Source: an uncultured Bdellovibrionales bacterium (lineage in GTDB: Bacteria > Patescibacteriota > Minisyncoccia > Moranbacterales > UBA1568). Taken from it: a stretch of 64,000 nucleotides of DNA. The notes beneath the pieces were generated by a model, which did no database searches, was not told the DNA's origin, and saw only the letters and a program-made list of their open reading frames with translations. The stretch spans positions 19,681-83,680 of the forward strand of contig CAYTED010000006.1 of NCBI GenBank assembly GCA_964436855.1, read 5' to 3'. The position numbers and the translations under genes were made by a program. Below are positions 4,201 to 44,542 of this stretch, piece after piece; positions within the stretch are counted from its first letter, which is position 1, and each line of letters begins with the position of its first letter.

Positions 4201-5706
4201 CGCCCGCCAAAATTCGGAATCAGAAGAAACGGACAAAGCGGGGTCGCGCCGAAGGCGCGACACTAATGCATTCCCCCCGCCGAATCCAGAATCCAAAAGG
4301 GTTTTCCACGCTCCGCGTGGCTCAAAAAGTACGGTTCGATCCTTAATTTGAAAGTTCGAACCGACTTTTTTGAACAAATGAAGATTTTCTTCATTTGTTC
4401 CCTCGTTTGTCAATTCCATACTGGATTTTATGAATCTATCAGCAAGTTCGAACCGATTATGAGATTTTTTCTCAAAAGATGATAATTTCTCTTTGAGAAG
4501 CTGTTTTTGACACATCAGCTTGTTTTTAGAATCACGATATTCGTCTAGCGAAAGTGCGTTCTCTAGGTAAGCACTCATCAGCTTCTCAATTTTGGAATCC
4601 AAAAGAGAAATTTCATCTTTTGTTTTTTGAGAAAAAATCTCACTCGATTGGACTTCTGATTGCCGATCTTTCTCGTTTTCGGCAATCATCCAGTTTGCCC
4701 AATCGAGTGGCAAAGAAACTTTTTGTACTTCCGTTCTGATTTGAGAAGTTATGATTTCCTCGCGAACATATTTTTGTTCACAAGGATTTTTCCGTTTAGT
4801 ACAGCGGAGATAGTTATGACCTTTCTGTGTTTCGGTAGTAATGAAGTAACCACATTCTCCGCAACGGAAAAATCCTCTGTATAGATAATATTTCAAACCT
4901 TTTCCCTTCGGCTTACTTTTCCTCATCATCACTTCTTGAACGGAATCAAAAAGTTTCTTTGTGATAATCGGTTCATGCTTACCCTCAAAAATCTCTCCGT
5001 TATATCGCATTAGTCCTGTGTAGATAGGATTTTTGAGGATTTGCTGATAGTTCGACACCGCAAGTTCCTTTCCGCTTTTTCGCCTCAATCCAAGTCCGTT
5101 AAATTTATCTCGGATTTGATGCAAAGTGAACGACCCTGTTGCGTATGCCTCAAATGTTTTTTTGATAAGCGGAGCTATCTCTTTGTCGGGAACAATGCCT
5201 TGTCCTTTTACATTCACATATCCAAGTGGAGACATTTGAGGCCATATACCTTCTTTCACTTTGTTGCGATGACCTCGTTTGATATTTTCCGACAAATTGT
5301 CCACATAATACTTAGATTGCGAAAAAGCGATTGAAAGCATGAATTTGCCTTGCGGTGTCGGATCACACCAGAAAGTTGGAAATTTTAGCTCGGCAATCTT
5401 TCCCGTATCGAGCAAATAGATAATTTTTCCACCATCAACAGAATTTCTCGCTAATCTGTCGGGATGCCAAGCTAAAATTCCATTTGCTTCACCTTGCTCG
5501 ATACGGAGAAGCATTTCATTAAATACTGGCCGACCTGGGACTTTGGCGGTTTGTTTTTCTACGAAAATATCAACAACCTCGATTTGCTCTTTCAACGCGA
5601 GTTCTTTGAGTTCAGCCAGTTGATCTGAAATACTTCTCACTTGCCGATCTTCGGTGTCGGTTGATTTCCTTGTGTAGATGAAAAACTTTCTGGTGTGATT
5701 ATTCAT
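4189..5706 (-). CDS. large serine recombinase (resolvase/integrase family)
   Basis: N-terminal resolvase catalytic motif (FIYTRKSTDTEDRQVRSISDQ, catalytic Ser), recombinase domain and C-terminal zinc ribbon (CGECGYF...CTKRK), 505 aa. Confidence 0.9.
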   Translation of the reverse strand: MNNHTRKFFIYTRKSTDTEDRQVRSISDQLAELKELALKEQIEVVDIFVEKQTAKVPGRPVFNEMLLRIEQGEANGILAWHPDRLARNSVDGGKIIYLLDTGKIAELKFPTFWCDPTPQGKFMLSIAFSQSKYYVDNLSENIKRGHRNKVKEGIWPQMSPLGYVNVKGQGIVPDKEIAPLIKKTFEAYATGSFTLHQIRDKFNGLGLRRKSGKELAVSNYQQILKNPIYTGLMRYNGEIFEGKHEPIITKKLFDSVQEVMMRKSKPKGKGLKYYLYRGFFRCGECGYFITTETQKGHNYLRCTKRKNPCEQKYVREEIITSQIRTEVQKVSLPLDWANWMIAENEKDRQSEVQSSEIFSQKTKDEISLLDSKIEKLMSAYLENALSLDEYRDSKNKLMCQKQLLKEKLSSFEKKSHNRFELADRFIKSSMELTNEGTNEENLHLFKKVGSNFQIKDRTVLFEPRGAWKTLLDSGFGGGNALVSRLRRDPALSVSSDSEFWRASSV

Positions 5707-5929
5707 AGAATTGTATTGGCAAACGAGGAGCCACGCGGAGCGTGGCGAATCCTTGCAGAATCAGGATTTTGTGGGGGGAATACAGAGCAGACGGCGCCTC
5801 GCGCCGACCGCATTTTTGCTTCGGAATCCGATTTCCAATTTTGGCGGTGTTTGTTGGACAAAGTTCGAATGTATTTCGAGCAGAATCCCGAAGACTAATC
5901 GCGCCTCGTCCGCTCCCTTCGGTCGCGGT

Positions 5930-6025
5930 ACAAAACCAAAAATTTTCCTTCCTTTCTTCTGATTTTCGGCGGGGGGTGTGGGGGGAGCCGACAAAAAATG
6001 GAAAGGAAATTTTTGGTTTTGGTTC
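5930..6025. promoter_or_regulatory. stem-loop presenting a G6TGTG6 motif (copy 1)
   Basis: A 25-bp inverted repeat (acaaaaccaaaaattttccttcctttc / gaaaggaaatttttggttttggttc) flanks cggcGGGGGGTGTGGGGGGagccg. The same G-rich core recurs at 15242-15280. Confidence 0.5.
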
Positions 6026-37293: not shown

Positions 37294-38787
37294 TTATTCC
37301 ACCCAGTGTCGTTTTTTGATCTTCTCGTCATCTTCCCCACGCTTTTCCTCGATTTTTTCTTTGGCGAGTTCCCGCAATTCCTCGAGGTCTCGGTCCAAAA
37401 GTTCTTCGCTTCGGGCAAGCAAAGCAGGTTTGGAATTTCGAGCGGGGTCTTCGATCACTTCCGCGAGGAGCACATCGAGAATAGCGCCGATTTTCGGTCC
37501 GGCCGGAATCTTGAGAGATTCCATAAGATCCGTTCCTTTGATCGCAAGCATTTTGACCGAAATCGGATCTTTCGAAACCTTCTCGATCATATATTCGAGG
37601 TGACGAAGTTTGTAGGGTTTCGCCTTCGGCGTCCCGGATCCGAGTCGGTCGCCGATTCGGACATCCATCAGATCCTTCATATTTTCGATGCCGACCTTTC
37701 GAATAAGTCGCCGTACCGAGGCTTCGGACACCTCTCCTACATTATAGTAAAATAGGTGATTGTCAACGAGGAGGGTTGATTTCTCGACAATCTCCCTTGG
37801 AAAACGGAGTCGTGTGAGGATGGCGCGGGTCATTCGCGCGCCAACGTGATCGTGATTGTAAAATGTTGAACGATACCCGTTTCCGCGCTTGGTTCGAGGT
37901 TTGGCAACGTCGTGAAGGAGGGCGGCAAGGCGCACTTCGAGTTTTTTTGACGGGCAGGTTTCGAGCGCGCGGAGATTGTGTTCCCAAACGGTGTAGATGT
38001 GATGGAGGTTTTGTCCAACACCGATACCTTCCTCGAGTTCGGGAAGAATGTGTTTTAAGAGCCCCGTTTTTTCGAGGAGATCGATGCCGAGCGAGGGACT
38101 TTCGGAGAGAATAATTTTCGCGAGCTCGTCGCGCACTCGTTCGGTTGAAATGTGCGTGATGTTTCCGGAAAGTTTTTTGATGGCGTCGAGCGTTGCGGAG
38201 TCGATCGCCCAATCATTTTTTTTCTGCTTTGGGTTTGAGAGTTCAGCATAAAAGCGAATCGCTCGCATCAAACGGAGAGCGTCTTCGGAAAATCGCTCTT
38301 CGGGAATGCCGACGGTTCGAATGATTTTTTGTTTTAAGTCTTGCTGTCCGTTAAAAGGATCGATAGTATGCCAGGAATCGCCTGCATCTTTTCCGAGGGC
38401 GATCGCGTTTACGGTAAAATCGCGTCGCGCGAGATCTTCTTCGAGCGATTGAGTGAACAAAACTTCTTTCGGTCGGCGTTTGTCGGTGTATTCGGATTCG
38501 ATACGGTATGTCGTTACTTCGATGACATCGTGTTCTCGATCTTCCGGTGTCCCGGGATGGAAACGAGGGACTTTTACTCCGACGGTTCCAAAATCGTTTT
38601 CATAAAAGCTCTCCGGAAAAATTTTCGTCACGTCTTCCGGCTTCGCGTTTGTCGTCACGTCCCAGTCTTTCGGCGTGCGATCAAGCAAGAGATCGCGTAC
38701 GCATCCACCCACGATATATGCTTCAAACCCCGCCTCTTTCAGGCGCTCGCAGATGTCGAGAACGGGTTGTGGAATCTCGTATTTCAT
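37294..38787 (-). CDS. cca: CCA-adding enzyme / tRNA nucleotidyltransferase with HD domain
   Basis: Pol-beta NTase head (FEAYIVGGCVRDLLLDRTPKDWD), an HD domain (ALLHDVAKP), 497 aa. Confidence 0.85.
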   Translation of the reverse strand: MKYEIPQPVLDICERLKEAGFEAYIVGGCVRDLLLDRTPKDWDVTTNAKPEDVTKIFPESFYENDFGTVGVKVPRFHPGTPEDREHDVIEVTTYRIESEYTDKRRPKEVLFTQSLEEDLARRDFTVNAIALGKDAGDSWHTIDPFNGQQDLKQKIIRTVGIPEERFSEDALRLMRAIRFYAELSNPKQKKNDWAIDSATLDAIKKLSGNITHISTERVRDELAKIILSESPSLGIDLLEKTGLLKHILPELEEGIGVGQNLHHIYTVWEHNLRALETCPSKKLEVRLAALLHDVAKPRTKRGNGYRSTFYNHDHVGARMTRAILTRLRFPREIVEKSTLLVDNHLFYYNVGEVSEASVRRLIRKVGIENMKDLMDVRIGDRLGSGTPKAKPYKLRHLEYMIEKVSKDPISVKMLAIKGTDLMESLKIPAGPKIGAILDVLLAEVIEDPARNSKPALLARSEELLDRDLEELRELAKEKIEEKRGEDDEKIKKRHWVE

Positions 38788-38866
38788 AAAGGAACTCTAG
38801 CAGCCTTTCCTTGCCCTGCCAATACTTTGCGTTCTTCCTCAAATGTTTCTTGTGCCACTTTTTGTT

Positions 38867-38903
38867 TGTACACAAAAGTAAGCGGTCGTGGAGAATTGTG
38901 TAC
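38867..38903. repeat. 37-bp palindromic element, copy 1 (GTACACAA-N19-TTGTGTAC)
   Basis: tgtacacaaaagtaagcggtcgtggagaattgtgtac is identical at 41408-41444. Confidence 0.75.
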
Positions 38904-38998
38904 AGATATTCTTTTCGGATAACCTTTTTTTTGACAGGAAATGTCGGGGGTGGTAATCTAGAGATAGTTTTTATTGGTGTAAATTCGTAAGCGTTTTT

Positions 38999-39619
38999 AT
39001 GTATCAATTAAGCAATGGAGTGAAAATCCTCTTTGGTATTGCTGGTGTTATTGTTGTCGCTGGTGTAGCGTATTTCTTGGTATTTAAAAAGGATGTTCCT
39101 GTTGAAAATTCGAAAAGTGATGATAAGAGTGCTCAGGTCGAACAAAAGACGATTCTCAAAAATGAGACGACAACAGAGACAAGTGCCTTCAAGACTTACG
39201 AAAGCAAAACGGGAAAGTTTTCCGTCGAGTATCCCAAGGAATTTCTGATACGGGAATATGCCGGAGAATATGAATATCTGGGAAATATTTTGAACGTCGC
39301 CATCGGAAAAAATGTCGCTGATGAGAAAAAATCTTTGACGAGCGATATTTTTATCAGCGTTTTTGATCGGTATGCTCCGGAGGATCCTCTTGCGATGCCG
39401 AATGGTATGGATCCGAAAGGAAGTATCGATATGATGATCGGCGGAGCAAAGGCGAAGAAATATATTGATAGGAAGGCATCCGATGAGAATGGTTTCGGGG
39501 GTTATGTTGTCGTGAATAGTGCAACGGGTTTCCGGTACGAAATCACGTTCGACGCTGGCGATGCGGAAACTTTGCAGGCCTTTGATGTAATAGCGCGAAG
39601 TTTTCGGTTTATTGAATAA
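38999..39619 (+). CDS. secreted/membrane-anchored hypothetical protein
   Basis: 206 aa with an N-terminal signal anchor (ILFGIAGVIVVAGVAYFLVF). Confidence 0.5.
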   Translation: MYQLSNGVKILFGIAGVIVVAGVAYFLVFKKDVPVENSKSDDKSAQVEQKTILKNETTTETSAFKTYESKTGKFSVEYPKEFLIREYAGEYEYLGNILNVAIGKNVADEKKSLTSDIFISVFDRYAPEDPLAMPNGMDPKGSIDMMIGGAKAKKYIDRKASDENGFGGYVVVNSATGFRYEITFDAGDAETLQAFDVIARSFRFIE

Positions 39620-39640
39620 TAATCTCTATTACTGGAACAT

Positions 39641-40282
39641 ATGAGTATTGAATCATCACCACCTATTTCTCAAGAACGCGAAGATTTTGAAAAGAATGAA
39701 AAGAGACTGAAGGAAATCAAGCAAACTCCGATCGGAGATATGTCTTTCGAGGAGCTTCAAAAACTCGTGGATGAACGGAGTCGGTTGGAAAATATGCTCC
39801 AAGGGATGATTCGTCAGGCGCAAACTGAAGCGGTAGCTGAAAATGAAATCCGTATTGCGTACGATGAGGCGGTAAAGGAAAACAAATTGCGCGAAAGTGA
39901 ACTCAAGCGAGCCGATAAATTAGCGCAACACATTAAAAAAGGAAACGTTGAAGTGAATGGAGATGAAATTGAAGATGCTGATTCTCACGATGAAAGTCTC
40001 GAATGGAAGGATTTTCAATCGAGTCTTGAAACGGTTGCCGAGGCGCTGAAAGGAGAGATATCTCGAGAATCTCTCGAGAAACTTTTCGGAATGCAAAAAT
40101 TGAAATACAAGGGCGTGGAAGAACAAAGAGAGGCGATCCGGAAGTCGATACGAGCGATGAAAACATTTCTTTCCGATTCGGAGCACACGGCGGCGAAGCT
40201 CCACGAAATAGTTGATCGAATGAATCTTACGGCGAATCCGGTAGACCATTTCTCGTTTCGCGATGAAAACCTCAATCCATAA
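39641..40282 (+). CDS. hypothetical coiled-coil protein
   Basis: 213-aa charged ORF; no recognisable domain. Confidence 0.45.
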   Translation: MSIESSPPISQEREDFEKNEKRLKEIKQTPIGDMSFEELQKLVDERSRLENMLQGMIRQAQTEAVAENEIRIAYDEAVKENKLRESELKRADKLAQHIKKGNVEVNGDEIEDADSHDESLEWKDFQSSLETVAEALKGEISRESLEKLFGMQKLKYKGVEEQREAIRKSIRAMKTFLSDSEHTAAKLHEIVDRMNLTANPVDHFSFRDENLNP

Positions 40283-40302
40283 TTCATTTTTGAAAAAAAC
40301 AT

Positions 40303-41229
40303 ATGATGGGCGAAATGGCACCAAAAGCATCCGGGGGACGGGAGGAATATGCGAAAAACGAAGCGCGTTTGAATGATGTGAACGCAGAGATCGCGAAACT
40401 TTTAGCTGAAAAGCAAGCGCTTGAAAGTAAGCAGGAAGCATCGGTGAGTGAGGCGCAGAGCGAAGCGACGGCCGAGAATCGTTTGCGCGATGATTTTGAA
40501 GCGGCAAAAGTTGAGAATCAAGCCTTCGACGAAGCGAAGGCTCGCGAGGCGGAGGAAAAGGCAGCGGCTGAAGCGGCGGCGCGTGAAAAGAAAAAAGCGG
40601 AAGATGTTACCAAGCAAGCCGAAGATGCCGAAAAAGCAGCAAAGCTCGCGGAGCAGATAAAAGGCGGTCAAATGGGCATAGAAAATGAAAATCAATCAAG
40701 TAACACCGAGTTAAATCAAGAAGGTGCTGGCATCGAGAATGAATCGCTTTCTCCGGTATTGCAGAAGTATTCCACTCCGATTGAAAAAACATTTTCCGAA
40801 TATCAGGCACTCATCGCGCAGGCGGAAAAATTGCGAGCCGAAGGAAAAGAACGGGAGGCTATTGATGTTGAAATTCAGGCCAACCGAACATCTGCTCGAA
40901 TTCTCAATGGTGGAGGCGACACGTTCGATGATTCGTTTTTGGAGTATCCGAAAAGAAATAGAAGCGAGTCTTATGAACAATGGAGAAAACAAGTGGATGC
41001 CGTAGGTAAGGAATACTATCGTGCCCTAGCAGACTCGCCACAAATGATATTGAGATTGGCGCGGGAAACGGGGAGGTTGGACTTCGAAAACATTTCCGGA
41101 CGATTATTACGAGATAAACAATTTATCAGCGTTCTTGCGCAAACAGAGGCTGCCAAGAAAGATGCGAAATTTCAGGTTGCGCTTCGTGATAACTTGTTTG
41201 GTCAATACGCAGCACGAGCAAGGTACTAA
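40303..41229 (+). CDS. hypothetical coiled-coil protein (Ala/Glu/Lys-rich)
   Basis: 308-aa ORF related in composition and N-terminal pattern (EEYAKNEARLNDV vs EDFEKNEKRLKEI) to the preceding ORF. Confidence 0.45.
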   Translation: MMGEMAPKASGGREEYAKNEARLNDVNAEIAKLLAEKQALESKQEASVSEAQSEATAENRLRDDFEAAKVENQAFDEAKAREAEEKAAAEAAAREKKKAEDVTKQAEDAEKAAKLAEQIKGGQMGIENENQSSNTELNQEGAGIENESLSPVLQKYSTPIEKTFSEYQALIAQAEKLRAEGKEREAIDVEIQANRTSARILNGGGDTFDDSFLEYPKRNRSESYEQWRKQVDAVGKEYYRALADSPQMILRLARETGRLDFENISGRLLRDKQFISVLAQTEAAKKDAKFQVALRDNLFGQYAARARY

Positions 41230-41248
41230 AAGGGAAGCTTTTATCTCA

Positions 41249-41279
41249 ACAAAAACAGCGGTTCAACCGCTGTTTTTGT
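41249..41279 (+). terminator. rho-independent terminator
   Basis: aaaaacagcgg-ttcaa-ccgctgttttt. Confidence 0.7.
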
Positions 41280-41407
41280 GTTGAAAATTTCTGAAAAATC
41301 TACAAATTACTCTCTCTTTTCTTCTTCAAACCATATCAATACATGACGGCCGTCACAAGTTGACACGTTTTTTTGGAGGAAAAAGTAAGGAAAGATCTCG
41401 CATTCAT

Positions 41408-41444
41408 TGTACACAAAAGTAAGCGGTCGTGGAGAATTGTGTAC
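41408..41444. repeat. 37-bp palindromic element, copy 2
   Basis: Identical to 38867-38903. Followed ~25 bp downstream by the strong terminator aaaaaacagccccgacgcacatcggggctgttttt (41468-41505). Confidence 0.75.
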
Positions 41445-41646
41445 GATCTGGTTTGGTATGGGTGGTGTAAAAAACAGCCCCGACGCACATCGGGGCTGTT
41501 TTTGTGTCGCGTATTGATTTTATCCGTACTTTATTACCAAACGAAGCGAGCGAAACGAAAGTCCGACTTTCGTTTCCGAGCGAGCGTCGGGTCAATACCC
41601 CGCGGCTTACCCCGCGGTGTAATACCCGTTATTTTACTTGTGGAAA

Positions 41647-41812
41647 CTGGATTCCCGCCTTCGCGGGAATGACAAACTTCCTCGAGAGCCTGCCGGCAGG
41701 CAGGCTCGACAAGCTCGGAGTGACAAATTCAATTACAGCGTTCGTTTCTTTGTCTCTTCCTTGAAACAGAGGAGGATGTCGCCGACTTGGATTTTGATGC
41801 CGCTCTCGAAAG
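41647..41812 (+). pseudogene. duplicated fragment of the infB 3' end and downstream hairpin (target-site-like duplication)
   Basis: ctggattcccgccttcgcgggaatgacaaac...attacagcgttcgtttctttgtctcttccttgaaacagaggaggatgtcgccgacttggattttga is ~85% identical to 42726-42838 (the infB stop region), with a 50-bp palindromic insert. Confidence 0.6.
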
Positions 41813-41852
41813 AGAAGTTGCTTTTGTGTGCGATTTTTGGTAGTGTTCGGAT

Positions 41853-42245
41853 ATGAATGAACGAGAAAACAATCAAGTGAAAGCGATATGCGAGCGGCAT
41901 CCGGAAGTGGGGGTGGTGTATCTGTTCGGATCACGCGCCACGGGGACTGCGGGACCAATGAGCGATTATGATTTTGCGGTGTATGCCGATCTCTCCGATC
42001 GAGGATCACTTGCCCAACTGGAGCTTGAATTACGCGGAGAGCTGTCGCAAGCATTGAATACGGATATGATCGATCTCGTGATGCTCAATACCGCGCAGTC
42101 GCCGGAATTGAAATACGCCATCCTTCGGGAAGGGGTAGTTCTTTTTGAACGCGAATCGTTTCGGGTGCGCATCGAGCCGAATATCCTGAATGAGTATTTC
42201 GATTTTCGAGATATGTTGCGCCGATATAAGCTCACTTCAGCGTAG
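41853..42245 (+). CDS. nucleotidyltransferase (MNT-type antitoxin-like, Pol-beta superfamily)
   Basis: GSRATGTAGPMSDYDFAV (G-S-x9-13-D-x-D motif), 130 aa, directly followed by a HEPN gene. Confidence 0.8.
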   Translation: MNERENNQVKAICERHPEVGVVYLFGSRATGTAGPMSDYDFAVYADLSDRGSLAQLELELRGELSQALNTDMIDLVMLNTAQSPELKYAILREGVVLFERESFRVRIEPNILNEYFDFRDMLRRYKLTSA

Positions 42246-42685
42246 TGTGTATGAGTACGATTTCCGTTATCGAAAACAAGATCAGTTCCGTGAAAAAATA
42301 CCTTGCAATTCTCGAGGATTTCAAGAAATATTCCCGCGAAGAGATTTTTGGAGATGTAACTCGGAGCGGAGCCTTTGAGCGGTATCTCTACTTGGTCACG
42401 CAGGCATCAATTGAGGTTGGTGAGAGCTATATTGCTTATCGAAATTTTCGCAAACCGACGACCCTTCGTGAAGTGTTCGGTATTCTTTTTGAGAATGGGA
42501 TTATCGGGAACGATTTGTCAGCCAAGCTTTCGATATGACCGGGTTTCGCAATGCGCTCGCGCATGATTATGAGGAGCTTGATCCGGAAAAACTGTACGGC
42601 GTGCTTCATCATCACCTCGGAGATATCGCAACTTTCATCTCGGTGATAGAAGAGAAAATAAAGAATGGAGAAGCGGGTAACTGAT
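42245..42685 (+). pseudogene. HepT/DUF86 HEPN-family toxin gene interrupted by a frameshift
   Basis: Frame A 42245-42538 ends ...GNDLSAKLSI*. The HEPN motif MTGFRNALAHDY(EELD) continues in the other frame to 42685. A 1-nt indel near 42525-42535 would restore a ~145-aa DUF86 protein. Confidence 0.6.
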
Positions 42686-42696
42686 TGTGAGCCTAC

Positions 42697-42727
42697 AAAA
42701 AACAGCGGAGAGACCGCTGTTTTTTCT
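42697..42727. terminator. bidirectional rho-independent terminator
   Basis: aaaaaacagcgg-agaga-ccgctgttttttct between hepT (+) and infB (-). Confidence 0.7.
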
Positions 42728-42760
42728 GGATCCCCGCCTTCGCGGGGATGACAAACCAAA

Positions 42761-44542
42761 TTACAGTGTTCGTTTCTTCGTTTCTTCCTTGAAACAGATA
42801 AGAGTGTCGCCGACTTGGATTTTGACGGGACCTTCGAAGACGACACCGCACTCGTTCCCTTGACCGACTTCATCGGCGTTTTCTTTGTTGCGTTGGAGAT
42901 TCTGCATTTTTCCGAGACCGATAATTTCGTCGCCGCGTTTCACCTCGAGTTGCGAGCCGCGGAGCATTTTCCCCTCCGAGACGCGACCACCGACGATCAT
43001 ATCTTTTTTCCCGGTCTTAAAGATCGCGAGAACCGAGAGACGGCCGGAATCGGTGCGAATCACTTCGGGCGGGAGGAGGTCGGACATTTTTTCTTTTACT
43101 CGTTCGACGAGTTTGTAAATGATATTGAACGTTTCAATCTCAACCTTCATTGTTTCGGCAAGCCGCGCGGCGACGGAGGTCGGATCGGCATTGAAACCGA
43201 AAATTTTCGCGCCGGAGGTTGCCGCCATTTTCACATCAGATTCGGTAATGGCGCCGACGCCGGAACTGATTTCCTGCAGCGCGATTTCATCCGATTGGAT
43301 GGTTGCAAGAATTTGCTCGATTGCTTCGAGCGATCCTTGCACATCGGCCTTGAGGACAACCGGAAATTTTTTGATATCGGCATTGTCATTCAAACTTTTT
43401 ACGCCTTTTCCTTCGCCTTCTTTCAGGAGCGCTTCCTGCGAGCGGAGGCGGGCGAGTGATTTCCCGCTTACGACTTGGACGACGCTGTTCACTTGCGGCG
43501 CGGCGTCGAATCCATAGAGAACGACCGGGGTTGATGGTCCGGCGTGTTCGAGGTTTTTTCCATTGAAATCTTCGATACGGCGAAGACGACCGAAGTTTTT
43601 TCCGGCGATCACGTCTTGACCGACTTTCAGTGTGCCGGTTTTCACCACACCGGTTGCGACCGGGCCTTTTTGCGGATCGAGATGCGATTCGAGAATAATC
43701 GCGAACCCGTCGCGTTTTGCGTCGGCCTTGAATTCTTCCACCTCGTCCAAAAGAAGGATGCTTTCGAGGAGTTTGTCGATTCCGATATTTTGCTTGGCAC
43801 TCACTTCATTGCAAAGGACGGTTCCACCCCACTCTTCGACGAGAATATTCTGTTCGGCGAGTTCTTGTTTCACGCGCTGTACATTTGCTTCCGGCTTGTC
43901 GACCTTGTTGATGGCGACGATTGTTGGAATTTTTTTCTCGAGGAGGTAGGAAATGACTTCTTTGGTTTGCGGGCGAACGCCGTCGTCCGCAGCAACGACG
44001 AGAATCGCTATATCGGCAATCGAAACACCGCGCTCACGCATGCCGGAAAACGCTTCGTGTCCCGGGGTGTCGATAAAGGTGATGAGTTTTCCGCGCTTTT
44101 TGACCTGATAGGCGCTGATTTTCTGGGTGATTCCACCCGCTTCTCCTGCGGCGACATTTGCTTTTCGAATGGTATCGAGAAGGGTGGTTTTTCCGTGGTC
44201 GACGTGCCCGAGAATCGTAACAATCGGGGGACGTTCGGCGAGATTTTGACCGGTTTTTTTCTCCTCTTCGCAGAGCGCAACGAGTCTCTCGAGGGTCATT
44301 TCACCGCTCGTTTCTTCTTCCGCCGGTTTTGGTTCGAAACCGAGATCCATCGCGATAACACTTGCGGTTTCGTAGTCGATTTCCTCGTTGATTGTCGCGA
44401 GAATTTTGTTTTTCATTAGCTCCGTGATAACCGCCGGAACGGGCAAATTCAAAATTTCCGCAAACCGTTTGACGGTGATCGTTTGCGGAAGGGAAACAGC
44501 TTTCGGTGTTGTGGCTTGAGATTGTTCCATAGAAAAAATCAA
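42761..44542 (-). CDS. infB: translation initiation factor IF-2 (short form)
   Basis: G-domain motifs [20 protein letters not shown] and NKVD, with the C-terminal IF-2 domain. At 593 aa it lacks the long N-terminal extension. Confidence 0.9.

Follow-up and report, generated by a model that had tools for sequence, protein, structure and literature searches.

An MntA/HepT toxin-antitoxin cassette bracketed by two copies of the infB 3' end in a Candidatus Moraniibacteriota bacterium

Genes and features at the infB locus

The region downstream of infB was analyzed in a 64-kb stretch (64,000 nt; hereafter the window) of contig CAYTED010000006.1, where an MntA/HepT toxin-antitoxin (TA) cassette lies between two copies of the infB 3' end. 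The host is a Candidatus Moraniibacteriota bacterium, an uncultured member of the Patescibacteria (candidate phyla radiation, CPR). The infB gene for translation initiation factor IF-2 (42761-44542, minus strand) is intact and encodes 593 residues by its longest open reading frame (ORF). Its product matched the Pfam families GTP_EFTU (1.7e-38), IF-2 (3e-32), and IF2_N, and the nearest IF-2 proteins among the GTDB species representatives, from other Moraniibacteriota, were 80-82% identical.

The inserted unit is a 913-bp MntA/HepT operon with its own promoter and terminator (41813-42725, plus strand). Homology to the cassettes of four other loci (L081, L082, L086, and L088) runs from the -35 box at 41818, which lies within 8 nt of the end of the upstream repeat copy (copy A), to the HepT stop codon, and the end of the terminator abuts the start of the downstream repeat copy (copy B) exactly. 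Therefore, the inserted unit was delimited as this minimal operon. A consensus scan missed the conserved cassette promoter as well as the obvious terminator, so both were assigned from conservation and folding. The putative promoter (41818-41846, plus strand) consists of TTGCTT, 17 nt, and TAGTGT, and was assigned from the positions of its boxes, which are conserved in four homologous cassettes (TTGCTT, TTGTCT, TTGTTT, or TTGCCT, followed by TAGGAT, TAAGAT, or TAGAAT). The bidirectional terminator hairpin (42697-42725; AAAAAACAGCGG-AGAGA-CCGCTGTTTTTT) is common to the convergent hepT and infB genes. It is an inverted repeat with 12-nt arms of 100% complementarity and a folding energy of -18.1 kcal/mol (z = -5.0).

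The mntA gene (41853-42245, plus strand) encodes an intact adenylyltransferase antitoxin of 130 residues. Its GSX10DXD motif (GSRATGTAGPMSDYD; GS-RATGTAGPMS-DYD, residues 26-40) was invariant in 20 homologues. The two genes are co-oriented with the antitoxin first, and the mntA stop codon at 42245 is followed by the hepT ATG at 42251 under one promoter and one terminator. The hepT frame is split in two. An N-terminal fragment of 95 residues (42251-42538, plus strand) covers positions 2-80 of the Pfam HepT-like family and ends at a TGA made by a frameshift, and a C-terminal fragment of 49 residues in the -1 frame (42535-42684, plus strand) covers positions 83-120 and carries the RX4HXY motif (RNALAHDY).

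The original prediction of an MNT/HepT cassette, made from the DNA letters, was borne out by profile searches and by both motifs. MntA matched Pfam Polbeta (2.5e-20) and scored 86.2 bits with the NCBIfam equivalog NF047752 (MntA_antitoxin; cut-off 60), and HepT with one base restored scored 106.9 bits with the equivalog NF047751 (HepT_toxin; cut-off 60). The repaired HepT also aligned end to end with the HepT toxins of PDB entries 5YEP, 6M6U, and 7AE2, RNALAHDY included, with values down to 1e-11. As in the type VII MntA/HepT systems of Shewanella oneidensis (SO_3165/3166) and Aphanizomenon flos-aquae, the equivalog models are passed, the antitoxin comes first, GSX10DXD and RX4HXY are present, and the toxin is homologous to solved structures. 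The window differs from these systems in that its toxin ORF is split by a 1-nt deletion and its host belongs to the Patescibacteria. Judged by these matches, the cassette is an ordinary member of the type VII TA systems, and knowledge of MntA/HepT function is unchanged by these findings.

No tyrosine or serine recombinase, transposase, or other mobility gene was detected by Pfam in the 913-bp unit or in its flanking genes. Inverted repeats pairing the cassette ends and attC-like sites were likewise absent from the unit. A transposon, an insertion sequence, or a miniature inverted-repeat transposable element was considered and rejected, since there are no terminal inverted repeats and the duplication measures 113 nt, whereas those elements leave short ones (2-15 bp).

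Duplication of the infB tail

Copy B (42726-42838, minus strand) is the functional infB tail. It comprises the last 25 codons and the stop codon (42761-42838), a 12-nt spacer, and a hairpin resembling repetitive extragenic palindromic (REP) elements (hairpin B, 42726-42753; 28 nt, CTGGATCCCCGCCTTCGCGGGGATGACA), which folds at -17.4 kcal/mol. Copy A (41647-41810, minus strand) is a displaced, non-functional tail, made up of 25 residues of infB coding sequence (41733-41810), the spacer, a 51-nt insert, and hairpin A (41647-41674). The ungapped matches between the copies pair 41647-41677 with 42726-42756 (29/31) and 41721-41810 with 42749-42838 (74/90). Over the 113 nt of copy B, with the insert excluded, identity was 96/113, or 85%. 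The infB tail part of copy A matched that of copy B by blastn at E = 6e-21, and the copies have an identical stretch of 22 nt (GTGTCGCCGACTTGGATTTTGA).

The 78-nt infB coding part of the repeat occurs only twice in the window, and the hairpin pattern CCCGCCTTCGCGGGRATGACAAA was found exactly twice in 64 kb versus 0 expected. Copies A and B both have lineage-specific residues (KIQ, CFK, and ETKKRTL) that are absent from relatives. The less conservative replacements are those of the displaced copy A, where two residues of the conserved GDTLIC are changed (T to I, I to L).

The original prediction had described a segment of the infB end and its downstream hairpin, present twice at about 85% identity and bracketing the cassette in the manner of a target-site duplication. 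When the two copies were aligned, the identity, the bracketing, and the resemblance to a target-site duplication all held, and the duplicated coding part amounted to 25 codons plus the stop. The upstream homology ends at 41810 and not at 41812. A palindromic insert had also been noted in the upstream copy; it is present there, with a length of 51 nt and not 50 nt. This insert (about 41677-41727) is a second REP-like hairpin found in copy A only, with a 9-bp stem (GAGCCTGCC/GGCAGGCTC), TGACAAA direct repeats on both sides, and a folding energy of -24.7 kcal/mol. An intergenic repeat of locus L018 contains a comparable CCTGCCTGCCGGCAGGCAGG hairpin.

Such a repeat could in principle be an assembly artefact, or dispersed REP elements could have come to lie near each other by chance. 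In favour of this account, the hairpin half recurs as a dispersed element, and Logan contigs break at repeat edges. However, the copies differ at 17/113 positions, so that an assembler would not collapse or misjoin them, and 78 nt of the repeat belong to the infB reading frame rather than to a REP element. In addition, a single Logan contig (L001) runs at 100% identity from copy A through the cassette and copy B into infB, of which it includes 1.1 kb. We therefore regard an artefact or chance origin as extremely improbable. The start of a Logan contig at 41646 was also considered as a sign of cassette polymorphism, which was not supported, as the break coincides with the edge of a multicopy REP k-mer.

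In many relatives, the gene order is a DUF4446 gene, infB, and cca, and the infB-cca gap spans 43-140 bp with a terminator and a promoter. The gap in the window measures 3.97 kb. The added length is made up of the TA cassette plus copy A, a hairpin-rich stretch of about 400 bp, and three plus-strand genes (206, 213, and 308 residues). Neither a second infB tail nor an MntA/HepT pair at infB was found at any of 79 infB loci of relatives; a duplicated tail without the cassette, which the original prediction had named as counter-evidence, was thus not seen among them. The nearest relative without the cassette is the one whose IF-2 is only 80-82% identical, and its intergenic DNA could not be aligned with the window.

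A protein search with the C-terminal 250 residues of IF-2 returned only fragments at 79% identity or less and no close relative, and an exact look-up of IF-2 and of the 308-residue neighbour gave no record, probably because of differing start calls. The 206-residue neighbour retrieved three same-species Logan contigs, none of which (0/3) extended to the cassette junctions. An Rfam scan of 38700-42900 gave no significant match.

Interruption of hepT and comparison with a sister strain

By alignment with intact relatives, one base is missing from the Ser codon of ...KLS-DMTGFRNALAHDY (KLS-DMTGFRN) at about 42526-42528, three codons before the RX4HXY motif. This agrees with the earlier claim that the HEPN frame is interrupted and needs a 1-nt correction. 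Intact relatives read ...KLSDMTGFRNALAHDY at this site, and a sister strain (contig L169) and four homologous cassettes are in frame there. Intact HepT was encoded in 70 homologous cassettes.

The Logan assembly of SRR12229868 (L001) was 100% identical to the window from 41646 to 43976, deletion included. A 90%-identity cluster look-up found an intact HepT of 144 residues (P0147) in SRR30303844. The sister contig L169 from this sample matched the window over 41862-43887 with 37 differences, only 4 of which fell outside a 90-bp patch in hepT. Outside the patch, the sister strain was about 99.8% identical over 1.9 kb, and it carries the same cassette in the same place with the toxin intact. Therefore, the deletion in the window appears recent and strain-specific, and the frameshift is very probably both real and recent. 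The original prediction had allowed for inactivation of the toxin, and this gained support from the second assembly with the deletion and from the intact sister allele. As read from its frames, the strain is left with an intact orphan antitoxin and a toxin inactivated by a 1-nt deletion.

The interruption would not cost the toxin its function if it were a sequencing error, a programmed frameshift, or a split toxin made through an ATGA overlap. The upstream TGA does overlap the ATG of the C-terminal fragment, which bears the whole RX4HXY motif, and both assemblies possibly derive from the same reads. However, the deletion was recovered by two assemblers, and it does not lie in a long homopolymer. 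The ATG encodes the conserved Met of DMTGFRN, and any -1 deletion shortly before this Met, if it meets no earlier stop, ends at the TGA in ATGA. Because the new frame stops inside this conserved ATGA, the stop-start overlap is a by-product of the deletion and not a designed coupling. The sister strain and the 70 homologues encode one continuous protein, and there is no slippery heptamer at the site; a programmed frameshift was rejected on these grounds. Retained function of HepT is thus very unlikely.

The hyper-divergent patch (42454-42543, plus strand) holds 33/37 of the differences from the sister strain (binomial p = 1e-40 for clustering). It corresponds to HepT residues of about 69-97, the helices just before RX4HXY, and the frameshift lies at its 3' edge. 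The family consensus was matched at 25/33 residues in the window and at 21/33 in the sister. The patch resembles a tract of gene conversion whose donor would be an unseen HepT paralogue or allele; neither a set of 170 loci nor the rest of the window yielded such a donor. Mutagenesis by a diversity-generating retroelement was rejected for this patch, in which substitutions are of all types.

The decay of the toxin is itself ordinary. ccdO157 in Escherichia coli is a decaying chromosomal TA system, and loss of the toxin first with retention of the antitoxin is the expected order (PMC2654758). The window resembles ccdO157 in its inactivated toxin, its intact antitoxin, and its polymorphism between close strains. 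It differs in its TA family and in the position of the lesion at the edge of a hyper-divergent patch. The locus offers a dated snapshot of TA decay: one strain has lost the toxin frame, which its 99.8%-identical sister still keeps.

Flanking repeats of homologous cassettes

MntA homologues at 69-74% identity were found in four unrelated neighbourhoods, by genes for PFOR, AbiEii/AAA_14, LPG synthase, and NUDIX proteins. Four homologous cassettes each encode an intact HepT of 139-143 residues. Since the closest cassettes lie in four other contexts, the cassette moves.

Flanking repeats were surveyed by comparing 400 nt upstream with 400 nt downstream of 58 further distinct cassettes at a threshold of E<1e-3, and direct repeats were found at 5/58. 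The L129 repeat (97-230 and 1367-1501; 135 nt, 85% identity) corresponds to the 5' end of the downstream cupin-like gene (about 47 codons). At L144, the repeat (189-252 and 1130-1193; 64 nt, 87.5%) consists of the last 21 codons and the stop of a dnaE-like gene on the opposite strand. The L082 repeat (4897-4966 and 5893-5963; 71 nt, 72%) is intergenic sequence, and short repeats of 36 nt and 24 nt flank the cassettes of L112 and L145, respectively. The repeat-bounded unit in all five cases contains only the promoter, mntA, hepT, and a short tail (877-1136 bp). No flanking repeats were found at L081, L086, and L088, which are among the closest homologues.

As a control, 427 gene-boundary units from the same loci were examined at a threshold of E<1e-7. 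Repeats were found at seven of the 427; two of these were surveyed cassettes, and five were intergenic REP arrays, AT-rich DNA, or palindromes. No coding-end duplication occurred among the control repeats. Duplications of a gene end were present in 3/59 cassettes (window included) versus 0/425 control units. The recurrence of the architecture is clear qualitatively, and its statistics are modest.

Mode of insertion

The movement of chromosomal TA cassettes is poorly understood because most lack any mobility gene. Long and variable target duplications have been described around restriction-modification units without mobility genes, mostly in naturally competent species, and some of them include 3'-terminal parts of neighbouring genes (Furuta et al. 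2010, PMC2853133). In PMC2654758, the first description of the phenomenon (Nobusato et al. 2000, Gene 259:99) is brought in as a parallel to TA systems. Furuta et al. used as criteria direct repeats of >30 bp flanking an insert of <20 kb without mobile-element genes, and a single-copy target in a relative with which both repeats align, the repeat not being a dispersed multicopy element. With repeats of 113 nt at 85% identity around 913 bp that hold only mntA and hepT, the window insert resembles this class in its repeat length and in its size and gene content.

The likeness extends to a small addiction-type unit without mobility genes and to long, locus-specific direct repeats, whose length varies by locus (24-135 nt here) and some of which overlap the ends of flanking genes. 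The cargo differs, being a TA operon here. Because 113 nt is far beyond a transposase-type duplication and the pattern matches that of restriction-modification units, the event was filed as an insertion with long target duplication. On balance, we lean towards the view that the cassette entered the infB 3' end by such a recombinase-independent insertion. The window and three sibling cassettes suggest the route that was proposed for restriction-modification systems. This insertion mode is known but rarely documented, and it has been described for restriction-modification rather than TA genes; here the inserted DNA is a TA operon, the host belongs to the CPR, and three sibling cases accompany it.

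In the proposed insertion, the ends of a linear cassette would have been joined at breaks 113 nt apart, followed by fill-in of the gaps. One of these breaks would fall on the hairpin's outer border and the second within the infB tail, and the two may have been staggered on one duplex or placed on sister chromosomes. The 113-nt target, comprising the last 25 infB codons, the stop, the spacer, and the REP-like hairpin, would then be present on both sides. Copy B, joined to the gene body, would keep infB intact, and copy A would be left as a dead tail that later gained the second REP-like hairpin. By analogy with characterized systems, HepT would cleave RNA and be neutralized by MntA through AMPylation of the RX4HXY Tyr, and the resulting addiction would help to keep the cassette in the genome. 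The locus keeps both junctions of the insertion beside infB, an essential gene.

Several observations weigh against this reading. The two copies are only 85% identical, and the repeats across loci 72-87%, versus mostly >90% in the published restriction-modification cases. Between functional and displaced gene ends at three loci, 20/32 differences fell at third codon positions (p = 7e-4 versus 1/3; p = 0.035 versus the approximately 0.45 expected if one copy decays in place). This bias hints that both copies diverged while coding, and such partly coding-like divergence is a further difference from the restriction-modification cases. The hairpin half is itself a member of a dispersed repeat family. 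For any strong flanking repeat, the enrichment among cassettes was modest (4/59 versus 5/425, p = 0.016; p = 0.059 without the window). A same-species empty site, with a single tail and no cassette, was not found, nor was one found in a close relative. The Logan assembly of SRR12229868 possibly stems from the same reads as the window.

The third-position bias would also fit an import of the cassette together with a diverged infB tail. The cassette would first have settled downstream of infB in a related lineage and then arrived by transformation-type transfer, through homology-facilitated illegitimate recombination, a Campbell-type single crossover of a circularized cassette with one repeat copy, or an attachment-site mimic. 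One copy would be foreign and the other native, and the 15% divergence would have accumulated between lineages and not by decay in place. The changes at the three independent loci comprise 15 synonymous and 11 non-synonymous codons, the stop codons are kept, the tails are free of frameshifts, and no near-100% pair occurs among the long repeats, all of which accord with import. Hairpins A and B differ at two positions that form a compensatory pair (U-A to C-G), and the sister strain L169 has the intermediate C/A. The lineage-specific residues common to both copies point the same way; as relatives lack them, any donor would be a close relative. However, import needs a donor that already had the cassette by the same gene, and likewise independently at L129 and L144. 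Non-conservative changes are more numerous in the displaced copy, which is what decay in place would produce. Moreover, the statistics are marginal (p = 0.035), and no donor lineage is known. We consider this route possible but doubtful.

Prophages and integrative and conjugative elements integrate into gene ends, as do phage 21 and e14 in icd and SXT in prfC. The window resembles these cases in the imperfect direct duplication of a coding-gene end, the intact target, and the dead fragment at the far junction. The cassette could accordingly be a relic of integrase-mediated integration, with an infB-tail mimic in the attachment site and the rest later deleted, or it could have been mobilized in trans. 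Such an origin would account for a gene-end duplication that leaves the target gene intact, for imperfect repeats in which the identical 22-nt stretch would be a possible core, and for the coding-like pattern of divergence. Nevertheless, the window element has no integrase or recombinase in or beside it, and its 913 bp are exactly one operon, the repeat-bounded unit running from the -35 box to the terminator. The same minimal-operon geometry recurs with differing targets at L082, L129, and L144, and the closest cassettes at L081, L086, and L088 have no flanking repeats. An integrase relic is therefore unlikely.

Recombinase-independent insertion with long target duplication remains our preferred reading for the window. 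A wider and tentative claim is that MntA/HepT operons, and perhaps addiction modules generally, could be autonomous mobile units that insert in this way, frequently at the ends of genes; the cassette would supply the gene end of the functional side or be imported along with it. If true, this would extend Kobayashi's restriction-modification model to TA systems and CPR bacteria, and the 90-bp hepT patch would be another indication that cassettes often recombine with one another.

Other repeats and genes of the infB-cca region

The hairpin CTGGATTCCCGC-N4-GCGGGAATGACA of the two copies (41647-41674 and 42726-42753) is a dispersed REP-like element in several Patescibacteria genomes, where it is sometimes paired. 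The same hairpin was found at about position 3552 of L032, 2419 of L051, 8309 of L059, and 99 of L062. The old infB downstream region of the window (41510-41646) contains a palindrome with 12-bp arms (41552-41576) between GCGAGCG direct repeats, and a tandem CCGCGGGGTA x2 at 41601-41624. A bidirectional terminator lies at 41470-41503.

The infB-cca spacer is enlarged by differing genes in several Moraniibacteriota lineages (L040, 7735-8637; L048, 6838-7734; L002, 6791-9605). A cysK-like gene occupies the spacer in L040 and L048. In L002, it holds genes for a membrane protein, a coiled-coil protein distantly related to the 308-residue protein of the window, and a PaaX-like regulator. The idea that infB-cca is a hotspot for mobile elements was not supported, since ordinary genes such as the cysK-like one are found there in other lineages. 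Two adjoining Lys/Glu-rich proteins of 213 and 308 residues are encoded at 39641-41229 in the window; they are probably coiled-coil proteins and had no Pfam match. Their sole detectable relative among the fetched loci was a 354-residue protein of L002 (39% identity over 154 residues).

The three-gene block at 38999-41229, which separates cca from the old infB downstream region, lies between two perfect copies of a 38-bp direct repeat that has palindromic arms (38866-38903 and 41407-41444; minus strand TGTACACAATTCTCCACGACCGCTTACTTTTGTGTACA). Logan contigs of two samples end inside both copies. This intergenic region may have received a second insert with target duplication, or the repeat may be an operator site that was duplicated.

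Comparable elements were observed beside genes for PaaX-like regulators. L002 has four similar elements (ATGTAACAC..CCRCGACCGTTGG..ATGTTACAT) between its inserted genes, at about 7012, 8587, 8670, and 9420, and two near-identical copies stand on either side of its PaaX-like gene (helix-turn-helix plus Cas2-like). At L060, perfect palindromes (TTGTCAACTTCTTGCATATGCAAGAAGTTGACAA; 4782-4823 and 5492-5533) flank another PaaX-like gene. The elements of L002 and L060 are probably operator sites of these regulators. An assignment of the 38-bp palindromes as integron-like or dif-like recombination sites was downgraded, and the operator-site reading is more likely, because the PaaX-like gene of L060 is flanked by palindromes in the same way.

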